Of a stretch of 26,706 bases of DNA, positions 9,941 through 24,266 are shown one piece after another. The stretch lies in the UHGV virus genome UHGV-0147372. The stretch is one strand, 5' to 3'. This stretch comes from a virus. The position numbers and the translations under genes are program-made. A model generated the notes under the pieces. It was not told the DNA's origin, did no database searches, and worked only from the letters and a program-made list of their open reading frames with translations. Each line of letters starts with the position of its first letter. Positions within the stretch are counted from its first letter, which is position 1.

Positions 9941-11707
9941 ATGAACACCACACTGACACCCGCAGATCTCGATCCCCGTCGGCAGGCCATGCTGCTGTAC
10001 TTTCAGGGATACCGCGTAGCCCGCATTGCTGAAATGCTGGGCGAGAAAGTTGCAACCGTTCACAGCTGGAAAAAACGCGACAAGTGGGGTGACTATGGGC
10101 CGCTGGATCAGATGCAGCTCACCACCGCCGCACGCTATTGCCAGCTCATTATGAAGGAGCACAAAGAAGGGAAAGATTTCAAAGAAATTGACCTGCTGGC
10201 ACGCCAGTCGGAGCGCCACGCGCGGATCGGCAAGTTTAACAATGGCGGCAACGAAGCCGACTTAAACCCTAACGTCGCCAACCGCAACAAAGGGCCGCGC
10301 CGTCAGCCGGAAAAGAATGTTTTCACCGATGAACAGATTGAGAAGCTGGAAGAAATCTTCCATTCCTCCATGTTCAACTACCAGCGCCACTGGTGGGAAG
10401 CTGGAAAAACCAACCGCATCCGTAATCTGCTGAAGTCACGCCAGATCGGCGCGACCTTTTACTTTGCCCGTGAAGCCCTGATTGACGCCCTGCTTACCGG
10501 ACGTAACCAGATTTTCCTTTCTGCCAGTAAGGCACAGGCTCACGTCTTTAAGCAATACATCATCGACTTCGCCAAAGAAGTCGAGGTGGAGCTGAAAGGC
10601 GATCCGATGGTGCTTCCTAACGGGGCCACGCTTTACTTCCTCGGCACCAATGCCCGCACTGCCCAGAGTTATCACGGCAACCTGTATCTGGATGAATATT
10701 TCTGGATACCGAAATTCCAGGAGCTGCGCAAAGTGGCTTCCGGTATGGCTATTCACAAAAAATGGCGACAAACCTATTTTTCCACGCCATCCAGCCTGAC
10801 CCACAGTGCTTATCCGTTCTGGTCCGGTGCGCTGTTCAACCGTGGACGCAACAAAGCTGACAAGGTGGACATCGACCTGTCCCACATCAATCTGGCCCCC
10901 GGCCTGCTGTGCGCAGACGGGCAATACCGCCAGATAGTCACCGTGGAAGATGCGGTGCGCGGCGGCTGTAACCTGTTCGACCTCGACCAGCTGCGCATGG
11001 AGTACAGCCCGGACGAATACCAGAACCTGCTGATGTGCGAGTTTGTGGACGATCTCGCGTCCGTGTTCCCGCTCAGCGAACTGCAGGCGTGCATGGTGGA
11101 CAGTTGGGAAGTCTGGACCGACTTTCATGCACTGGCCCTGCGCCCGTTTGGCTGGCGCGAGGTGTGGATCGGTTATGACCCAGCAAAAGGTACGCAGAAC
11201 GGTGACAGTGCCGGGTGCGTGGTGGTGGCTCCGCCAGCTGTGCCGGGCGGTAAGTTCCGTATTCTTGAGCGTCACCAGTGGCGCGGGATGGACTTCCGCA
11301 CCCAGGCGGACGCCATCAAAAAACTGACCGAACAGTACAACGTGACATACATCGGCATCGACTCAACCGGCGTTGGTCACGGGGTTTACGAGAACGTGAA
11401 AGCGTTCTTTCCTGCCGTCCGGGAGTTTGTCTACAACCCCAACGTTAAAAACGCCCTGGTACTCAAGGCCTACGACATTATCAGCCACCGCCGTCTGGAG
11501 TTTGACGCCGGGCACACCGACATTGCGCAGTCATTCATGGCGATCCGTCGCGCCACCACCGCCAGCGGCAACCGCCCGACCTATGAAGCCAGCCGCAGCG
11601 AAGAAGCCAGCCATGCCGATCTGGCCTGGGCAACAATGCACGCACTGTTTAACGAACCGCTGCAGGGCGAGTCCGCCAATACCAGCAATATTGTGGAGAT
11701 TTTTTGA
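9941..11707 (+). CDS. P: Terminase large (ATPase) subunit gpP
   Basis: 588 aa; P2 P size, position and similarity. Confidence 0.9.
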   Translation: MNTTLTPADLDPRRQAMLLYFQGYRVARIAEMLGEKVATVHSWKKRDKWGDYGPLDQMQLTTAARYCQLIMKEHKEGKDFKEIDLLARQSERHARIGKFNNGGNEADLNPNVANRNKGPRRQPEKNVFTDEQIEKLEEIFHSSMFNYQRHWWEAGKTNRIRNLLKSRQIGATFYFAREALIDALLTGRNQIFLSASKAQAHVFKQYIIDFAKEVEVELKGDPMVLPNGATLYFLGTNARTAQSYHGNLYLDEYFWIPKFQELRKVASGMAIHKKWRQTYFSTPSSLTHSAYPFWSGALFNRGRNKADKVDIDLSHINLAPGLLCADGQYRQIVTVEDAVRGGCNLFDLDQLRMEYSPDEYQNLLMCEFVDDLASVFPLSELQACMVDSWEVWTDFHALALRPFGWREVWIGYDPAKGTQNGDSAGCVVVAPPAVPGGKFRILERHQWRGMDFRTQADAIKKLTEQYNVTYIGIDSTGVGHGVYENVKAFFPAVREFVYNPNVKNALVLKAYDIISHRRLEFDAGHTDIAQSFMAIRRATTASGNRPTYEASRSEEASHADLAWATMHALFNEPLQGESANTSNIVEIF

Positions 11708-12738
11708 TGGGAAAGAGTAAGAAAAACCGCGCAGCGGCGATGAATCAGATCCAGCATAAAAACCAGACTTCAGCCGAAGCATTCAGCTTCGGCGATCCCG
11801 TTCCGGTTCTGGACCGCCGTGAACTGCTGGACTATGTGGAATGCGTACAGACAGATCGCTGGTATGAGCCGCCAGTGAGTTTTGACGGACTGGCACGAAC
11901 ATTCCGCGCCGCCGTACACCACAGTTCACCGATTGCAGTGAAATGCAACATTCTGACCAGCACCTACATCCCTCACCCGCTGCTCAGCCAGCAGGCTTTT
12001 TCACGTTTTGTGCAGGACTATCTGGTATTTGGTAACGCCTACCTGGAGAAACGCACGAACCGCTTCGGTGAAGTTATCGCCCTTGAGCCTGCTCTGGCAA
12101 AATACACCCGACGCGGGTTAGACCTGGATACCTACTGGTTTGTGCAATACGGTATGACAACCCAGCCGTATCAGTTCACGAAAGGCAGCATTTTTCATCT
12201 GATGGAACCTGACATCAACCAGGAGATCTACGGCCTACCAGGTTATCTTTCTGCCATTCCGTCAGCCCTGCTCAACGAGTCCGCCACGCTGTTCCGCCGG
12301 AAGTATTACATTAACGGCAGCCATGCAGGCTTCATCATGTACATGACCGATGCCGCGCAGAACCAGGAGGATGTGAACAACCTCCGCAATGCGATGAAAA
12401 GCGCCAAAGGCCCTGGCAACTTCCGCAACCTGTTTATGTACTCGCCTAACGGCAAAAAGGACGGGCTTCAGATCATCCCGTTGTCAGAAGTCGCGGCGAA
12501 GGATGAATTTCTGAACATCAAGAACGTCAGCCGTGATGACATGATGGCGGCGCACCGTGTACCGCCACAAATGATGGGTATTATGCCGAATAATGTTGGG
12601 GGGTTTGGGGATGTGGAGAAGGCAAGTAATGTATTTGTTCGTAACGAACTTATCCCCTTACAAAAACGTATAGAACAATTAAATCAATGGATAGGAAACA
12701 CAATTATTAATTTTTTACCATATTCTCTCCAAAGTTAA
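11704..12738 (+). CDS. Q: Portal protein gpQ
   Basis: 344 aa; P2 Q size and position; ATGA-type overlap with P. Confidence 0.9.
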   Translation: MMGKSKKNRAAAMNQIQHKNQTSAEAFSFGDPVPVLDRRELLDYVECVQTDRWYEPPVSFDGLARTFRAAVHHSSPIAVKCNILTSTYIPHPLLSQQAFSRFVQDYLVFGNAYLEKRTNRFGEVIALEPALAKYTRRGLDLDTYWFVQYGMTTQPYQFTKGSIFHLMEPDINQEIYGLPGYLSAIPSALLNESATLFRRKYYINGSHAGFIMYMTDAAQNQEDVNNLRNAMKSAKGPGNFRNLFMYSPNGKKDGLQIIPLSEVAAKDEFLNIKNVSRDDMMAAHRVPPQMMGIMPNNVGGFGDVEKASNVFVRNELIPLQKRIEQLNQWIGNTIINFLPYSLQS

Positions 12739-12750
12739 AAAATAGCATAT

Positions 12751-12773
12751 GGGTGCATAATGTTTATGCACCC
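12751..12773. terminator. Hairpin (GGGTGCATAA-tgt-TTATGCACCC) between convergent Q and the TIR-like gene; candidate bidirectional terminator
   Basis: Perfect 10 bp inverted repeat with a 3 nt loop read directly; flanked by A/T-rich sequence. Confidence 0.4.
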
Positions 12774-12778
12774 TCTTA

Positions 12779-13396
12779 TTACCAGTTAAAAATTGATGAG
12801 CTGCGAATTGCAGGAACATCCGATGGATTTCGTTTAGCAGCTGGTTCCATCAACTTACGCTTGTTAAATGCCTGATCAATATAATACTCAGGATTTTTAA
12901 TAAAGACAGAGTATTTTACCAATGCACAATATACGTCAGAGTCATTATAATGGGGAACTGTTTTTTCATAAACATGATTCTTTCTAACCAGATAAGGCAA
13001 ATAATAATCATATCCCCAACCTGGCGTTCTTAGACTTATAGAACATCCGCATGATGGATCTGCACATACTGCAGGAGTAAACACACTGTCGTAAATTTCA
13101 TCTCTGATAACACCAATTAGACCATTATAGTTTTCTCCCCAGAGTGATGCTTGAATTTCAGAGTTTATAAATGGACGATTTTTGGTTTCCGTTCCAATAA
13201 GAACGACAGTAACCGTTGAGTCTTTTAAAAAATCCTCACGAATAGTCCTCATTATTGTTTCATCAGTGTTAGTTGTACTAATGTCACCATCACTTACCGA
13301 CTTATCAATAAACGATTCTCCTCCGAATAAATCAATAATCTCATCTTTGAGATCTTGTTCGTTAGCATGATGATAACTAAGAAACGTCTTATGCAT
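12779..13396 (-). CDS. TIR-like (ThsB/DUF1863-like) protein, candidate NAD-processing signalling enzyme
   Basis: 205 aa; N-terminus KTFLSYHHANEQD resembles the TIR beta-A strand (FISYxHxD); block TVTVVLIGTETKNRPFINSEI resembles the ThsB/TIR beta-C/alpha-C region with the catalytic Glu; AT-rich; identification from memory of motifs, not a search. Confidence 0.5.
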   Translation of the reverse strand: MHKTFLSYHHANEQDLKDEIIDLFGGESFIDKSVSDGDISTTNTDETIMRTIREDFLKDSTVTVVLIGTETKNRPFINSEIQASLWGENYNGLIGVIRDEIYDSVFTPAVCADPSCGCSISLRTPGWGYDYYLPYLVRKNHVYEKTVPHYNDSDVYCALVKYSVFIKNPEYYIDQAFNKRKLMEPAAKRNPSDVPAIRSSSIFNW

Positions 13397-14127
13397 TATT
13401 CACTCCATTTATCAACATTTATATCAAACTCTTTGACTACCTTATCATTGAAGAAATCGTTTACTTCTTTAAAACCTTCCAATACTTGACTAAAATGATA
13501 ATAATGCTTTTGTATAGTACTTATAGGGGTTAAATGATACGGCAGTGATATAAATTCGCCGTTAGGGTCTCTATCCTTTGTGGTCACTTTATCATTATCT
13601 GAAACATATTTATGCCATCTCCGATAATTATTTTGATGCTTTGTTAAAAAAGAGTTTAACGTTTTCAAAATTTCATTTGAAAGTAAATACAGTTTTTTAT
13701 CTCTTTTTTTCTTCACATCTAGTAATTTCATTTCATCTCTAATGAATTTATAGCACTCATAATATGAGTTTAAAACTTCTTCAATTGAGTCATAATTCGG
13801 ATCAAATTTAAATAATGTTCGCTTCGTATCCAGATAATTTTTTACGCTCTTTTTAAAAAGAAGATCAGACTTATTTAGTAAAATATTAATACCACCAAAA
13901 CTAAGTTGCTCCAATCTCAATGAATATCTTTGATGAAATGCACCGACCAGCAAGATATAAGCAACTAAAAATAGTATTAATACTGATAGAAAAGCACGAA
14001 TTATGCTTACATTTGACATGAAATTAACTATAAACCACCATTTTTCAAACGGTGAAAACGGAATGCACCCCATGATAATAAGTAGAAGAACAAAGATACA
14101 ACCCCATAAAACCCACAATCTGTACAT
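13396..14127 (-). CDS. Hypothetical membrane protein (2-3 N-terminal TM helices plus a roughly 170 aa Lys/Tyr-rich soluble domain); candidate effector
   Basis: ORF track begins at a TTG at 14172 that lies inside the predicted promoter; ATG at 14127 (MYRLWVLWG...) with AAGGA upstream is preferred; stop overlaps the TIR-like start by 1 nt. Confidence 0.6.
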   Translation of the reverse strand: MYRLWVLWGCIFVLLLIIMGCIPFSPFEKWWFIVNFMSNVSIIRAFLSVLILFLVAYILLVGAFHQRYSLRLEQLSFGGINILLNKSDLLFKKSVKNYLDTKRTLFKFDPNYDSIEEVLNSYYECYKFIRDEMKLLDVKKKRDKKLYLLSNEILKTLNSFLTKHQNNYRRWHKYVSDNDKVTTKDRDPNGEFISLPYHLTPISTIQKHYYHFSQVLEGFKEVNDFFNDKVVKEFDINVDKWSE

Positions 14128-14149
14128 AAGAAAGATCCTTTTTCTTTTT

Positions 14150-14177
14150 ATAATACTGCAACTACACCTCAAGTCAA
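14150..14177 (-). promoter_or_regulatory. Candidate sigma70 promoter for the membrane-protein/TIR-like operon
   Basis: Minus-strand TTGACT (14177..14172), 16 bp spacer, TATTAT (14155..14150); about 25-45 bp upstream of the ATG at 14127. Confidence 0.35.
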
Positions 14178-14279: not shown

Positions 14280-14298
14280 CTCGTATCCCCGCCACGCC
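14280..14298 (-). other. Candidate cos cohesive-end sequence (GGCGTGGCGGGGATACGAG on the minus strand)
   Basis: 14 of 19 positions, and 12 of the first 13, match the P2 cohesive end GGCGAGGCGGGGAAAGCAC as recalled; orientation relative to Q matches P2; a GC-rich island in AT-rich surroundings; adjacent hairpin CCCGCCA-attc-TGGCGGG at 14349..14366. Confidence 0.4.
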
Positions 14299-14415: not shown

Positions 14416-15258
14416 TCATGCACGATCATTTGACTCAGCATCTGCTGCACGCTTGCTGCGCGAAGATGCACTTTTACTATCAATCTTTCGACAGTTCTTT
14501 CTATCCCTGGCTTCATTTTCTTTAAATTTGTTATATGTCTCAGTATCAAAAAACGAAATTGTTTCAACCTCATCTTTTGGTATGAGCACACGGAAATCTT
14601 CGATATTAAGCCGAGACATTCCACTTATCACACCACTATCAAGATAATGTTGGTGATAGTTAGTCGTGATACTAATCGTTAGATCATCTTTATCCCGATA
14701 TCCGCTTAACATCGGGAGAAGTTCAAGGTGCTCTGAAAGCCCGTTTTCTAACGCCGGACAAGTAACAAGACCAACATAGATTTTGCGAGACGACAGAGTT
14801 GCTATGATCGGAAACTGTCTTGCGGACGCTTCCATGAGTAATGATTCGAAAGCGTTATTACCCACAGCTTTAGCTAAGGCATCCCAGCGACGATCTCCAC
14901 GTGATGTGCGTAACTTATTTCCAAAACCTGAAATCGCAGCGAGGACAATTGAAATCATAACCCATGCTATCTGTTTGATTTCATTTATTCTTTGAAGTTT
15001 GTCTTTCGATGAAGACAACATGCCATTAAAACTGTCAGGTGTTAGATTCAAGGCATTAGCCAGCCAACGAAACCCTCCGCTGACGTTCAAAATAAAGGTG
15101 AAAAAACCGCCAAGGAGAAAAAAAACGATACCCCAGGCAGCCACAAAAAAATAAGCGTCCCAGCCGTTGGAACGCTTATATCGGTATCTTGTTGAAAGTG
15201 ATAGGTTTACATAAATAAAACCACTAACCAAAATCACTGCTAAAAGTAATGTTGCCAT
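14416..15258 (-). CDS. Hypothetical membrane protein (three predicted N-terminal TM helices plus soluble C-terminal domain)
   Basis: 280 aa ORF; hydrophobic segments at about aa 3-20, 35-56 and 100-118; start overlaps the stop of the upstream 71 aa gene by 1 nt. Confidence 0.6.
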   Translation of the reverse strand: MATLLLAVILVSGFIYVNLSLSTRYRYKRSNGWDAYFFVAAWGIVFFLLGGFFTFILNVSGGFRWLANALNLTPDSFNGMLSSSKDKLQRINEIKQIAWVMISIVLAAISGFGNKLRTSRGDRRWDALAKAVGNNAFESLLMEASARQFPIIATLSSRKIYVGLVTCPALENGLSEHLELLPMLSGYRDKDDLTISITTNYHQHYLDSGVISGMSRLNIEDFRVLIPKDEVETISFFDTETYNKFKENEARDRKNCRKIDSKSASSRSKRAADAESNDRA

Positions 15259-15473
15259 TATCTGGTTCTATTAGTTTTCTCTTTTACAGTGCTCGTTTTG
15301 ATGCCTTCAAGCTTATCCATCTGTGCCTTGATGGCATCCATTGCTCTTTTGTTAGACAAGTCTACGGACACAAAACCATCTTTACTAAGATTGAGTTTGT
15401 CCTGGTTCTCTTTAAGAACCCTTGCCAGACGTTCAACTGGGTTACCCAGGCTAAATGCGGCGATGCTTGACAT
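15258..15473 (-). CDS. Hypothetical small protein (71 aa), first gene of a two-gene accessory operon
   Basis: ATG at 15473 preceded by a strong SD (GGGGGAG) 3-4 nt upstream; translationally coupled to the 280 aa membrane protein. Confidence 0.55.
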   Translation of the reverse strand: MSSIAAFSLGNPVERLARVLKENQDKLNLSKDGFVSVDLSNKRAMDAIKAQMDKLEGIKTSTVKEKTNRTR

Positions 15474-16329: not shown

Positions 16330-18702
16330 TTAATACAGGTTTCGCCACTTATCATCTTCCTGCAAACGCTGGTTCCGATAGAAGATACGCAGGCCTGCTC
16401 CTGACGGAATACTGCCGCCGCGAAGGAGTAAATCGACCTCTTTCTCGCTACCATCAAATCCTCTGGACTTCAGCTCATAGACGAGCTGCTGTCGCTGATG
16501 GTCTGTAATTCGCTGTTTGTAGTCTTTACGCCGTTTCGGTTTAACCAGGCGTAACCTTGCTGCCAGTTCCCGGCGCTCTTTTTTGCTCATACTGTGCAGG
16601 TAATCGTGCAACTGCTTGTCATCCATGCGGGTAATGTCCGTTCTGGTGCCCCCATCAGCTGATTTATCTTTCTCCTGTTGGTTCAAATTTTCAGCAAGGG
16701 GACAGTTATTGCCACGAGTCCAAGGGGCGCAAGCGCCCTGGTCGGCTGCCGCCTCCTGAACGTCAACGGCCTTACGAACCATTTTCCACTTCACGGCATG
16801 AGTGCAGATCTTGCCCTCTGCAATAGGTGACCAGATGCCATAAATACGAATGCCGTGATCGCCATAGGCGGTCGGCTCTTCGTTGATTTCATAAGCAGTT
16901 CTGATGAGGTGATATTTGCGGGGAACCAGTACGCCACCCTGCTTCATGATGTAGGTGGCAAAACAACCAGCATCAGCAGCAGCCAGAATGGCATCAAGGC
17001 GCGGGTTATCCAGTACCGGCGCACCTGCTTTTTTGTCCCCCTGTTGCCTTGCCGCCTGACCAGCCAGCAATCGCAGTTCACGGTAAGCCTGACGCCCCGG
17101 AATGCCAAAGAAGCGGAATTGCTGAACACGATGCAGAGACGCCCAAGCATTAACGTATTCAGCATTATCACGCAGGGATTTCCCCGTTTCCTTGCTGATC
17201 TCGCCAGCCAGACCACGCCCGTCAATGTTCTTACTGATGTATTTCGCGATGTAGCTTGTTGGCGTACCTTTGCGCGGGTTAATCAACTCAGACTTAAAGC
17301 GCGGCCCAGTGTTATTGCCCAGCTCCTCGCGGTCTTCACGGATGGCAAACTTACGCAGTAATGCAGTGATGGTGCGGCGGTCTTTTTTGCGCATAAAACA
17401 CAACAGGTGCCAGTGAACTGTACCGTCATGATGCGGCTCAGCCACCCGCACGCCATACCACCGCAATCCGGCTTTGTGCATCGCCTTACGAAATGCAGCA
17501 AACATGCCGACCAGATAATCACTGCTTTGTCTTACCGTCGCATTTGTCCAGGTTGGGTTGGGCCTGCCGTTATTTAGCGTGGAATGGAAACGTGACGGAC
17601 AGGTGATGGTGTAGAAAACGGCGCAGTCACCGCGCATTTCCGCGATAAGCTCCAGACCTTTAACACAGGCCATCATCTCATTGCGGCGATGCGCAGGGTT
17701 GCTGCTGCTGGCGTTTACCACATCCTCCATGTCCAGCGTGTCGCCGTCTTCGTTCACCAGTTCATGAGAACGGAAAAACTCCAGCGACTTACGGCGCTGC
17801 TCACGTTTATGCATCACGGCTTCATAGCTGACATAGGGAGATGCTTTTTTGCTGACCAGGCAAACAGCACGCAACTGCTCTTCCCGCCATTCGCAACGCA
17901 TCTTCCATAATTTCCGGTACCACCAGTCGGCGCACAACATACGCGCCAGCGAACCCGGAATGAGTTCATAGGGCACGGGTTTACGGCGGTTTCTTTTCCG
18001 GCGGAGTTGCTCAAACGCAGGCGGTATGACATCCAGTCGCAGGGTTTCTGCTGCCACCTTTTCCCATGTCTTGCGGATTTCTTCTGGCTTAACGTCATCG
18101 GTGGCATACAAATCGCCACAAGCTGCATCAAGGCACATGCTCATATGCGCAGCAACAAGGGTGGACAGGCGTTTCACCTGATCCTGACTCATTTCAGGCA
18201 GAATCAGCAGGCCGTCCAGCCCTTCATGGCTTGCCATAAAGCGAAAAGAAGTGGATAGCTGACTGTCGCGCACATGCTCCAGCCGTTCCAGACATGGCTT
18301 AATCGTCTCACGCAAATAGCGGGAATAAGCCTTTGGCCTGCCAAGGCTGCTGAAGTATTCAATACGTTGCATCAGCGGCTTGCTGATATGGGAAGGCTGG
18401 GCATTGACGTCCGCCAGAATGACCATATCTGGATTAAAACGCTGCTGCTCATGCGCCAGCTTTGCCCGACTAATGAGCTTATCCTGCTCCATTTCGCGCT
18501 GGACAGGATCACGGGATTCATTAAAGAAATAACGCTCCCAGACCTGATCACTCAGTACCTCGCGGCGCAGGTGTTCCTGCTCGTTATCGGCAGCGTACAG
18601 AGCGATCAGGTTTGAAAGCGCAGAAACTGAAGATTGCTCTTCTGTCTCTACGTAAGGATTGATTGCTTTTTTCTCAGCATTCCAGGAATAGCTGTAGTTC
18701 AT
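16330..18702 (-). CDS. A: Replication initiation endonuclease gpA (rolling-circle initiator)
   Basis: 790 aa; P2/186 gene A size class and position at the end of the early operon. Confidence 0.88.
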
Positions 18703-22272: not shown

Positions 22273-23214
22273 ATGTCAACTAATAAAATCACATTTCGCC
22301 ATATTGAAGATCATCTGAAAGCCATGGTCATGCAGAATCGAGGAGGGCAAAAAGTCATTGAGAGAATACTCATGGCCTATGGTTTCAAATCACGCCAAGC
22401 ATTCTGTAACCACCTTGGTATTTCACAAAGTACAATGGCTAACAGATATGCACGCGATACCTTCCCTGCTGATTGGGTTGTTATATGTTCAATGGAAACT
22501 GGCGCATCAATCGAATGGTTAGCATTTGGTTTAGATGCTGAAGAAGGAGTGCCAGCTCCTTCGCCAGAACGGCATGCTGAAAAACAGTCTGCAGATGAAT
22601 TTTGCAATGAAGTTCACACCCCCACGATAAAGTTCGATAATGAAAACCACATGGATTTCACTCGAGGGGGTAAAGCAGCAATAGAGCGAATTGTTAAGGC
22701 TTACGGTTACAAAACGCGCCAAGCCTTAGCCGATCACCTTGGTATCTCAAAAAGCACATTAGCTACACGATACATGCGAGACATTTTTCCGGCAGACTGG
22801 ATCATCCAATGCTGTTTAGAAACAGGAGTGTCTCTCGAGTGGTTATCTTTTGGTAAGGGGCATTCCAATCAAACAAAGCTAAGTGGGTTGCTTACATTAG
22901 ACTGCTATGATCTACGTGACGGCAAACTTACTGATCAAAGAGAATTAATCGTTTCGAGCGAAATTTTACCTCAAAATTTAAAACATCCCTATATAGTTAA
23001 TTCCGCAAATGATTCATATATCATTAGCAAAGAGGAGTATCTTAGCGATGGTCTATGGTTAGTATCTATTAACGGAGAATTTACTTTTAGAGACATATTT
23101 AAACTTCCAAACAATCGCATCCGCGTTGAAAACACAAAATATAGCTTTGAATGCGATAAAGAAGATTTGGAATTTAATAATAAAGTTAAAGGAATAATTA
23201 GAAAAAGGGTTTAA
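22273..23214 (+). CDS. cI: CI-type immunity repressor with tandemly duplicated N-terminal DNA-binding domain
   Basis: 313 aa; two roughly 60 aa copies (KVIERILMAYGFKSRQAFCNHLGISQSTMANRYARDTFPADWVVICSMETGASIEWLAFG and AAIERIVKAYGYKTRQALADHLGISKSTLATRYMRDIFPADWIIQCCLETGVSLEWLSFG) resembling the 186 CI N-terminal domain, then a C-terminal domain. Confidence 0.75.
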   Translation: MSTNKITFRHIEDHLKAMVMQNRGGQKVIERILMAYGFKSRQAFCNHLGISQSTMANRYARDTFPADWVVICSMETGASIEWLAFGLDAEEGVPAPSPERHAEKQSADEFCNEVHTPTIKFDNENHMDFTRGGKAAIERIVKAYGYKTRQALADHLGISKSTLATRYMRDIFPADWIIQCCLETGVSLEWLSFGKGHSNQTKLSGLLTLDCYDLRDGKLTDQRELIVSSEILPQNLKHPYIVNSANDSYIISKEEYLSDGLWLVSINGEFTFRDIFKLPNNRIRVENTKYSFECDKEDLEFNNKVKGIIRKRV

Positions 23215-23216
23215 CA

Positions 23217-24266
23217 ATGAGCTTTACGAAAACTATTGAATTTGCAAACTATACCTTAAATTTTGGAGAGGACAAAGTTCTCTTAGATGCTTTTGATTGC
23301 ATTGTTTTTCCTTCATTTTTCGCACAAAAATACGTTAGAAAATTTAAAGATACAGAATATTTCTTTACTGACACAAAAATTATTACGTTAGATACTACAG
23401 ATTCAGATTTTATTGGTCCTATAGTTCCAACAATTGCATTGTGTGGCCGCATTATAAAAAAGACCATATTTAAACGAGATCAAATATTTCAAGATGGTCA
23501 ATTAATTCGAGATCACAGGACGCTAGAAAGTCACCCCAGCTCTATTTTTATTCTTATGCTTAATGAGCACAGATTAATGCTTTGCAAAGAGGTTTCTGGA
23601 GCCCCTACCCTAGAAGAATTTGAAAATACTAGCAAGTATTGCCTTGCACAGCGATATAATTCTTTTGTGGATTACGAAGTAAAAAAAAATAAAAGAATTA
23701 GAAAGAAAAAATCATACATTGATCGACTGTATAAAAAAGATATTTATCGTAAACTAGGAGCCCCCAAATTACGGGTTACCCCCTTAACAGACCCAAGATC
23801 ATTGAGCAATTTTGTTGAACTCTTTTCTGTTGTTAATAGATTATCAATTGAGTTATTGCCAACAAATAGTGAAAATATATCTCTTGATGGCTTCTGGAGG
23901 AAAATTGAACAAGAAAAAGAAGAACTTAATAGTAGTAAAGCTCAATTAGTATACACAAATAAAAATGAAGATGGTTTAAATTCTGAGGCCGTCATTCAAA
24001 AAACAACAAGTGCAACCCGAATGGCCAACTCTAAAGTAATTATAAGTGGTAAAGATGAACACGGAGCAAGGCTATCAGGGAATAATGATAGTTTTACTCT
24101 AAAAGCATCAAGGCCACAACTTAGTTCTGATTTGGAAAGAGCTGCTCAAGAGGCGTATTCTGCATTCACAGAATTAAAGGATGCAGGAAATATTATCATT
24201 CCAGAACGTGAAGATTATACTAAAATTTTTTCCAAGTTAACATCAATAATTTCTAGGTGGCTATAG
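23217..24266 (+). CDS. Hypothetical cytoplasmic protein (349 aa), AT-rich, co-transcribed with cI; RexA-like by position only
   Basis: Starts 2 nt after the cI stop; no recognisable motif; Lys/Asn-rich AT-biased composition. Confidence 0.6.
   Translation: MSFTKTIEFANYTLNFGEDKVLLDAFDCIVFPSFFAQKYVRKFKDTEYFFTDTKIITLDTTDSDFIGPIVPTIALCGRIIKKTIFKRDQIFQDGQLIRDHRTLESHPSSIFILMLNEHRLMLCKEVSGAPTLEEFENTSKYCLAQRYNSFVDYEVKKNKRIRKKKSYIDRLYKKDIYRKLGAPKLRVTPLTDPRSLSNFVELFSVVNRLSIELLPTNSENISLDGFWRKIEQEKEELNSSKAQLVYTNKNEDGLNSEAVIQKTTSATRMANSKVIISGKDEHGARLSGNNDSFTLKASRPQLSSDLERAAQEAYSAFTELKDAGNIIIPEREDYTKIFSKLTSIISRWL

Follow-up and report, generated by a model that had tools for sequence, protein, structure and literature searches.

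A gene pair between the portal gene and cos of a P2/186-like Escherichia coli prophage is very probably a type VI Thoeris (thsG–thsB) anti-phage module

What occupies the interval between the portal gene and cos of a P2-like prophage when that interval is several times longer than in P2 itself? UHGV-0147372 raises this question: the window—the whole 26,706-nt stretch of DNA analysed—is a P2/186-like E. coli prophage that carries terminase P, portal Q and replication endonuclease A as full-length ORFs, and further encodes a Dam-type methylase, 186-type CII and CI, and an integrase. Two minus-strand genes, flanked by P, Q and A, come straight after Q, on the Q side of cos. The features of this region are as follows.

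9941–11707, plus strand: terminase gene P
11704–12738, plus strand: portal gene Q
12751–12773, no strand assigned: GC-rich hairpin GGGTGCAT...ATGCACCC from a terminator scan, between the convergent Q and thsB
12779–13396, minus strand: thsB, 205 aa, ThsB-type TIR protein (from sequence profiles)
13396–14127, minus strand: thsG-like effector gene, 243 aa (from ORF and ribosome-binding site, hydropathy, AF2 model and alignment)
14140–14136, minus strand: Shine–Dalgarno AAGGA, 8 nt before ATG 14127, read from the sequence
14177–14150, minus strand: sigma-70-like promoter candidate TTGACT-16-TATTAT, 10/12 matches, 23 nt upstream of the ATG
14280–14298, plus strand: cos core CTCGTATCCCCGCCACGCC, counterpart of the P2 19-nt cohesive end, unique match
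16330–18702, minus strand: replication endonuclease gene A

The cos region was compared with the P2 and E1114 sequences in Table S2A of Rousset et al. 2022; for the core CTCGTATCCCCGCCACGCC, 0 matches were expected by chance and one was observed. The core marks the right-hand edge of the insertion slot and is context, lying outside the module. Because it sits at 14280–14298, the 1541 bp between the Q stop codon and cos are filled by the cassette. The corresponding interval in the P2 sequence of the same table is 167 bp, a figure that replaces the roughly 60 bp assumed in the original prediction. Module GC content is 0.32, as against 0.54 for P and Q together and 0.53 for A. The AT-rich minus-strand pair predicted between portal and cos is borne out, TAATG overlap included. 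We infer that the cassette is cargo which the phage acquired, at 32% GC, and which was placed between Q and cos. Rousset et al. 2022 describe the whole gpA–gpQ interval, with cos inside it, as a P2 defence hotspot, and one of the arrangements in their Table S5A contains WP_000549631, labelled 'DUF1863'; the 205-aa protein of the window is identical to RefSeq WP_000549631.1 of strain A14. The module was absent from all 50,697 phage GenBank records searched, in which the cos-proximal ~130 bp gave the only match.

The longest upstream ORF (13396–14172, minus strand) opens with a TTG, but the true start is ATG 14127, giving 243 aa, because an AAGGA ribosome-binding site precedes it, the RefSeq gene measures 732 nt and 28 of 28 aligned homologues begin there; the TTG at 14172 falls within the -35 hexamer of the promoter candidate. 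The stop codon TAA of the upstream gene and the ATG of the downstream gene share base 13396 (minus strand ...AGT GAA TAA TGC AT...), and translation of thsB would be coupled to that of thsG through this TAATG overlap. The pair had been credited with its own sigma70-like promoter. A site of that kind is present, TTGACT-16-TATTAT with 10/12 matches, and the operon would be transcribed from it; enrichment did not accompany it, as the AT-rich stretch holds 12 promoter-like sites against 10.6 +/- 3.2 in shuffles, and since shuffles give as many sites the candidate at 14177–14150 is plausible by position only. At the other end of the operon, a T-run follows the hairpin at 12751–12773 on the minus strand, and the hairpin is likely a terminator common to Q and thsB.

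The downstream protein is a ThsB-type TIR protein, an assignment for which the TIR fold is read from sequence profiles. Pfam PF08937 (ThsB_TIR) matches residues 5–96 with 54.7 bits against a cut-off of 21.2 (E=1.5e-14), and seven PADLOC models match the protein, six of them ThsB models; the earlier description of a TIR-like protein, with FLSYHH and TVTVVLIGTETKNRPFINSEI both found as quoted, is thus confirmed. Across VLIGTETKNRPFINSEI, phmmer aligns the protein with two ThsB structures (6LHY, 9B7D) and with 8WCF, the alignments spanning the motif VLIGxxTxNRxxxxxEI. In 9B7D and 8WCF, Glu80 falls opposite the glutamate of ...NRxWVxYEI, and 6LHY matches the same residues, 43–97. Because these alignments to ThsB structures cover VLIGTETKNRPFINSEI, Glu80 corresponds to the conserved glutamate and, within FINSEI, is the putative catalytic residue. 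The C-terminal half carries a Cys-rich insertion (C110, C115, C117 and C156); relatives from E. coli S1, Serratia and Oceanobacillus keep its four cysteines, which a short 160-aa relative (L006) lacks. Possibly, this insertion could be a phage-sensing element.

Turning to the upstream protein, hydropathy shows two strongly hydrophobic segments (window centres 10–20 and 41–59), and an AF2 monomer model built on 29 homologues places helices at 2–21, 26–38 and 40–64, followed by a disordered linker; the two to three TM helices expected of this protein are therefore in place. Two N-terminal transmembrane helices are predicted, at about residues 2–21 and 40–64. The model has a pLDDT of 83 overall and of 86–97 for residues 91–240, and its soluble domain (~85–243) is mostly helical with one small beta-hairpin, a confident fold that resembles no enzyme. 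Given two transmembrane helices and the basic residues after TM2, this domain probably faces the cytoplasm. Across an alignment of 28 homologues, K102, R103, D113, N158, T162, Q165, N166, R169, R170, W171, Q206, Y209 and W241 are invariant in it. The family signature is LTxHQNNYRRW, and the majority consensus calculated from 147 distant representatives still shows LTxxQxxYRRW. Judged from the window, the ligand is most likely to be contacted by K102/R103 and R169/R170/W171.

Searches for a known domain in this effector gave nothing at E<=1 or 0.1 against Pfam, PADLOC and NCBIfam, and a profile search of PDB sequences returned nothing meaningful. The proposal that the effector lacks Macro, SIR2 and SLOG signatures agrees with Pfam scans of the effector and its 28 homologues, in which no such domain appeared at E<=1; PADLOC likewise gave the effector no SIR2 or SLOG match, and DUF2270 and SLATT had no Pfam match at E<=1 either. 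One family recurs at lower scores. PF20355 (DUF6650) stays below the 27-bit Pfam cut-off on the effector, on 28 close relatives and on 147 representative relatives; the best direct match among the ~180 relatives scanned is to P0085 (16 bits, E=0.012), and precomputed weak or faint matches exist on five family members (P0026, P0050, P0063, P0065 and P0085), for which PF20355 is the sole family recorded. When 5.8 billion proteins were searched with a profile and 1.84 billion representatives exhaustively, no DUF6650 protein above threshold emerged, nor did one from a P0085-seeded search, from Pfam scans covering the 147 representatives along with chosen relatives that lack TM helices, or from plasmids and phages queried by tblastn with a Bacillus type VI TIR. 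Because PF20355 alone recurs, the effector family is likely, from its sequences, to be remotely homologous to DUF6650. Yirmiya et al. (bioRxiv 10.64898/2025.12.03.692087, December 2025) list a 98.4%-identical effector from E. coli ACN001 as 'DUF6650 and TM'; as PF20355 is sub-threshold, the homology of the TM-anchored clade to the Bacillus DUF6650 effectors stands as these authors' annotation together with the faint hits.

The ACN001 locus identifies the module. ACN001 carries it at 99.1% DNA identity (locus L002), with 202/205 residues of ThsB and 239/243 of ThsG identical, and with the two genes, their order and the 1-nt overlap all as in the window. Its position also corresponds, between a truncated portal gene and the DinI and A genes of a P2-like prophage. 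In Table S2 of the preprint, which is not peer-reviewed, the ACN001 TIR gene 2638504641 and effector gene 2638504642 are entered as type VI in E. coli MG1655, with 'Defense: Yes' and T7, and the type VI effector is named ThsG; the TIR sequence in Table S1 is identical to the protein of the ACN001 locus. According to the same source, the two-gene ACN001 cassette, cloned with its native promoter, protects E. coli MG1655 against phage, and T7 was used to trigger ACN001 ThsB. The window module is thus very probably a prophage-borne type VI Thoeris anti-phage module. Because only three plus four amino-acid differences separate it from ACN001, it is a near-identical allele of a named, validated system and not a new one.

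This identity divides the original prediction. A Thoeris-type system with a membrane effector was foreseen, and ThsB with ThsG of type VI matches it; the further claim of an undescribed flavour falls to the ACN001 system (99.1% DNA identity, 3/205 and 4/243 differences). The prediction had also named, as an outcome that would count against it, a match to an already described system with a known Macro or SLOG effector: the match to type VI is of that kind in spirit, but the described effector is neither Macro nor SLOG. The two alleles differ by seven substitutions in total. Those in ThsB (window/ACN001) are I77V, S79T and W127L, of which I77V and S79T flank Glu80; the window has the FINSEI form, which is found in Oceanobacillus too. 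The two prophages also differ, that of ACN001 being a remnant in which the portal and tape-measure genes are truncated, whereas P, Q and A are full-length in the window.

The pairing of the two genes extends well beyond E. coli. The effector family amounts to 66 clusters when grouped at 90% identity and to 208 representatives at the 50% level, and a ThsB_TIR gene lies directly downstream of the effector homologue in each of the six distant contigs read (Oceanobacillus, a Serratia P2-like prophage, a Klebsiella-type locus and three metagenomic loci). Their contexts include a type I RM island in Oceanobacillus and, in Serratia, a P2-like Q-to-A slot as in the window, the remainder being an integrase/Rep element, a transposon context, a multi-TIR array and a phage-like contig. 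An effector clade of ~42% identity is found on 140 enterobacterial plasmids; in the one plasmid opened from it, the effector and TIR genes are convergent. An Aureispira plasmid carries four TIR genes and, after them, a gene for a 204-aa effector homologue. The C-terminal part of this protein resembles the soluble domain of the effector studied here (hhalign probability 96.4%, E=1.4e-9), and Pfam makes no DUF6650 call on the protein.

These data bear on whether the pair is a defence module at all. It could instead be a non-defence moron, for example a membrane superinfection-exclusion protein accompanied by a host-directed TIR-like protein: the bacterial TIR proteins TcpC and TirS disturb host TLR signalling, and the E. 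coli strains that harbour the prophage include both commensals and pathogens, avian pathogenic E. coli (APEC) among the latter. We consider this highly improbable, given the strict ThsB_TIR pairing across phyla, non-pathogens included, the location in a validated defence hotspot, the lack of a signal peptide and of a secretion context in the window, and the ACN001 allele scored as defensive by Yirmiya et al.

For a type VI Thoeris module, published biochemistry suggests how the two proteins might act together. In the results given by Yirmiya et al., three of five type VI TIRs yield 2'cADPR upon infection, addition of 2'cADPR arrests growth of cells with two type VI systems, the sponges Tad1 and MoTad2 abolish type VI defence, and His-ADPR comes from none of the type V–XI TIRs reported on; AF3 predicts that ThsG forms a homo-hexameric tube whose pockets between protomers are positively charged. 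We propose that ThsB of the window would, on infection, turn NAD+ into 2'cADPR, an isomer of cyclic ADP-ribose, as described for the three other type VI systems; 2'cADPR would then bind the cytoplasmic domain of membrane-anchored ThsG, which would arrest growth, probably via a breach of the inner membrane, such that the infection is aborted. In the prophage, the cassette would shield the lysogen from other phages. The invariant K102, R103, R169 and R170 are compatible with such basic pockets between protomers in the window ThsG.

The identity of the signal is where a rival reading carries most weight. The E. coli/P2 clade (ACN001, S1 and the window) may share this architecture and yet use a different NAD+-derived molecule as the ThsB signal, with a ThsG matched to it. 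Among the five type VI systems, two yielded no measurable 2'cADPR, for which Yirmiya et al. raise the possibility of another signal, and this clade may be one of those two; the toxicity assays, as described in the preprint, name only the Gammaproteobacteria-scaffold and Bacillus-scaffold systems. The system of the metagenomic Gammaproteobacteria scaffold, which is the biochemically characterised model, has the same composition as ACN001, a TIR of cluster 2741407742 and a 'DUF6650 and TM' effector; it makes 2'cADPR, responds to it with ThsG growth arrest and is inhibited by Tad1, MoTad2 and, according to a 2026 preprint, XopQ, an enzyme that cleaves 2'cADPR. The window TIR, however, is 42.6% identical to the TIR of that system, over 101 aligned residues only, and has the extra Cys-rich insertion relative to the short L006 TIR, while its effector clade has diverged beyond what the Pfam DUF6650 model recognises. 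Against a separate signal, Yirmiya et al. place the ACN001 and S1 TIRs in cluster 2741407742, that of a 2'cADPR producer, and, because native promoters, and not pBAD, drove expression of the E. coli ThsBs, weak 2'cADPR production below detection is a simple alternative. A different signal in this clade is rather unlikely, although it is the most novel of the readings considered.

A second rival dispenses with the diffusible signal: the TIR would itself kill as an NADase that depletes NAD+, and the membrane protein would be a sensor or regulator. TIR domains of CBASS, Pycsar, Avs and SPARTA often deplete NAD+, Yirmiya et al. concede this option for unverified configurations, and a cyclase and a hydrolase cannot be told apart by sequence alone. 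The TIR of the window nevertheless belongs to the ThsB family (PF08937), which is the signalling class. In the preprint's account, 2'cADPR comes from three type VI TIRs and, when added, stops growth through ThsG. The Aureispira arrangement of four TIRs with one effector is, moreover, a many-sensors-one-effector layout typical of Thoeris. We regard direct killing by the TIR as very unlikely and retain ThsB as signal generator and ThsG as effector.

Other known systems resemble the module in part. Type II Thoeris likewise pairs a ThsB TIR with an effector that has N-terminal TM helices and a cytoplasmic ligand-sensing domain, and it ends in abortive infection or growth arrest, as proposed here; its effector, however, is a Macro-TM protein that responds to His-ADPR, whereas the window effector has no Macro domain. 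Type II was rejected on this ground (no Macro match at E<=1) and for a soluble domain that is mostly helical and not of the alpha/beta Macro fold. Type I, with its SIR2-SLOG ThsA, was rejected as well, the partner having no SIR2 or SLOG match in Pfam or PADLOC. Types V (DUF2270/ThsF) and VII (SLATT/ThsH) also combine a TIR signal generator with an oligomeric effector that spans the membrane and is predicted to have basic ligand pockets, but their signals are 3'cADPR and canonical cADPR, and the window effector has no DUF2270 or SLATT match.

A final candidate shares the genomic location. Rst_2TM_1TM_TIR of the P2-like phage AC1 (Rousset et al. 2022) joins a TIR protein to TM partners in the same cos-proximal gpA–gpQ hotspot and is experimentally defensive; it has three genes, for a 126-aa 2TM protein, a 185-aa 1TM protein and a 315-aa TIR protein with a long C-terminal extension, in contrast to the two genes of the window module. 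Homology to AC1 was rejected from a comparison that covered its TIR and 1TM proteins: BLASTP gave E=0.15 between the two TIRs and E=5.4 between the window effector and the 1TM protein. For E. coli more broadly, Wang et al. 2024 (PMC11350192) report 32 TIR systems, with a named set TIR-I to TIR-IX.

A defence system was thus called correctly from raw sequence, yet this is no discovery, the type VI system having been named and validated in late 2025 and the locus catalogued in 2022. Its value lies in a natural, apparently intact prophage setting for type VI Thoeris, with a candidate promoter of its own and on the Q side of cos, and in a convenient E. coli allele with which to study the signal made by E. 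coli variants and the way ThsG halts growth. Among 5,426 complete E. coli genomes, 42 carry the cassette with an identity of 98.6% or higher, ACN001 being one of them. Its carriers are commensal and pathogenic strains, APEC among the latter.

Of the cassette's other occurrences in E. coli, the one tested in the preprint of Yirmiya et al. (strain ACN001, NZ_CP007442.1 861315-870708) sits inside a decayed P2-like prophage, in which a truncated portal gene is fused head to head with a truncated tape-measure gene; by contrast, the flanking phage genes P, Q and A of the window are intact ORFs. E. coli 13TMH22 carries two copies, one chromosomal and one on a 36,172-bp record, NZ_CP019257.1, which is filed under plasmids and may be a P2-like phage genome:

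NZ_CP019257.1 320-1702: cassette copy of E. coli 13TMH22

The match to the effector gene in this copy is split into two pieces and the gene is unannotated, so the effector is probably frameshifted here.

An insertion within the TIR domain of ThsB (12779-13396, minus strand) holds four cysteines, C110, C115, C117 and C156. All four are kept in relatives from E. coli S1, a Serratia P2-like prophage and Oceanobacillus, and the insertion may serve as a zinc site or sensor element; the 160-aa TIR protein of a metagenomic locus (L006) lacks them.

At approximately 42% identity, the effector is related to a clade found on about 140 enterobacterial plasmids, of IncF and other types, where it adjoins a resolvase. 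One such pair (L012) was located as follows:

NZ_CP038792.1 58586-59948: plasmid-clade TIR and effector pair

Here, the TIR gene is convergent with the effector gene rather than co-directional, and a DUF1883 protein adjoins the pair; L006, a locus unrelated to L012, also encodes a DUF1883 protein, at a distance of a few genes from its own pair. A different arrangement was found on an Aureispira sp. plasmid:

NZ_CP133672.1 1-4470: multi-TIR array

After four TIR genes in a row comes a gene for a 204-aa protein homologous to the soluble domain of the window effector (hhalign 96.4%). The locus is thus a many-TIR, one-effector array of the Bacteroidota.

Elsewhere in the prophage, two ORFs lie on the side of cos towards the A gene:

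14416-15258, minus strand: ORF of 280 aa, possibly encoding a membrane protein, as judged by reading its sequence
15258-15473, minus strand: ORF of 71 aa, overlapping the 280-aa ORF by 1 base

Neither matched an entry in Pfam, PADLOC or NCBIfam; for strain A14, the RefSeq annotation of the 280-aa ORF is limited to a 152-aa version. Two further adjoining ORFs are flanked by the repressor and integrase genes:

22273-23214: 186-type CI repressor gene
23217-24266, plus strand: ORF of 349 aa
24268-24873, plus strand: ORF of 201 aa
24885-26015: integrase gene

The 349-aa and 201-aa ORFs, which gave no match in Pfam or PADLOC, may together constitute a second cargo or moron locus in the prophage.
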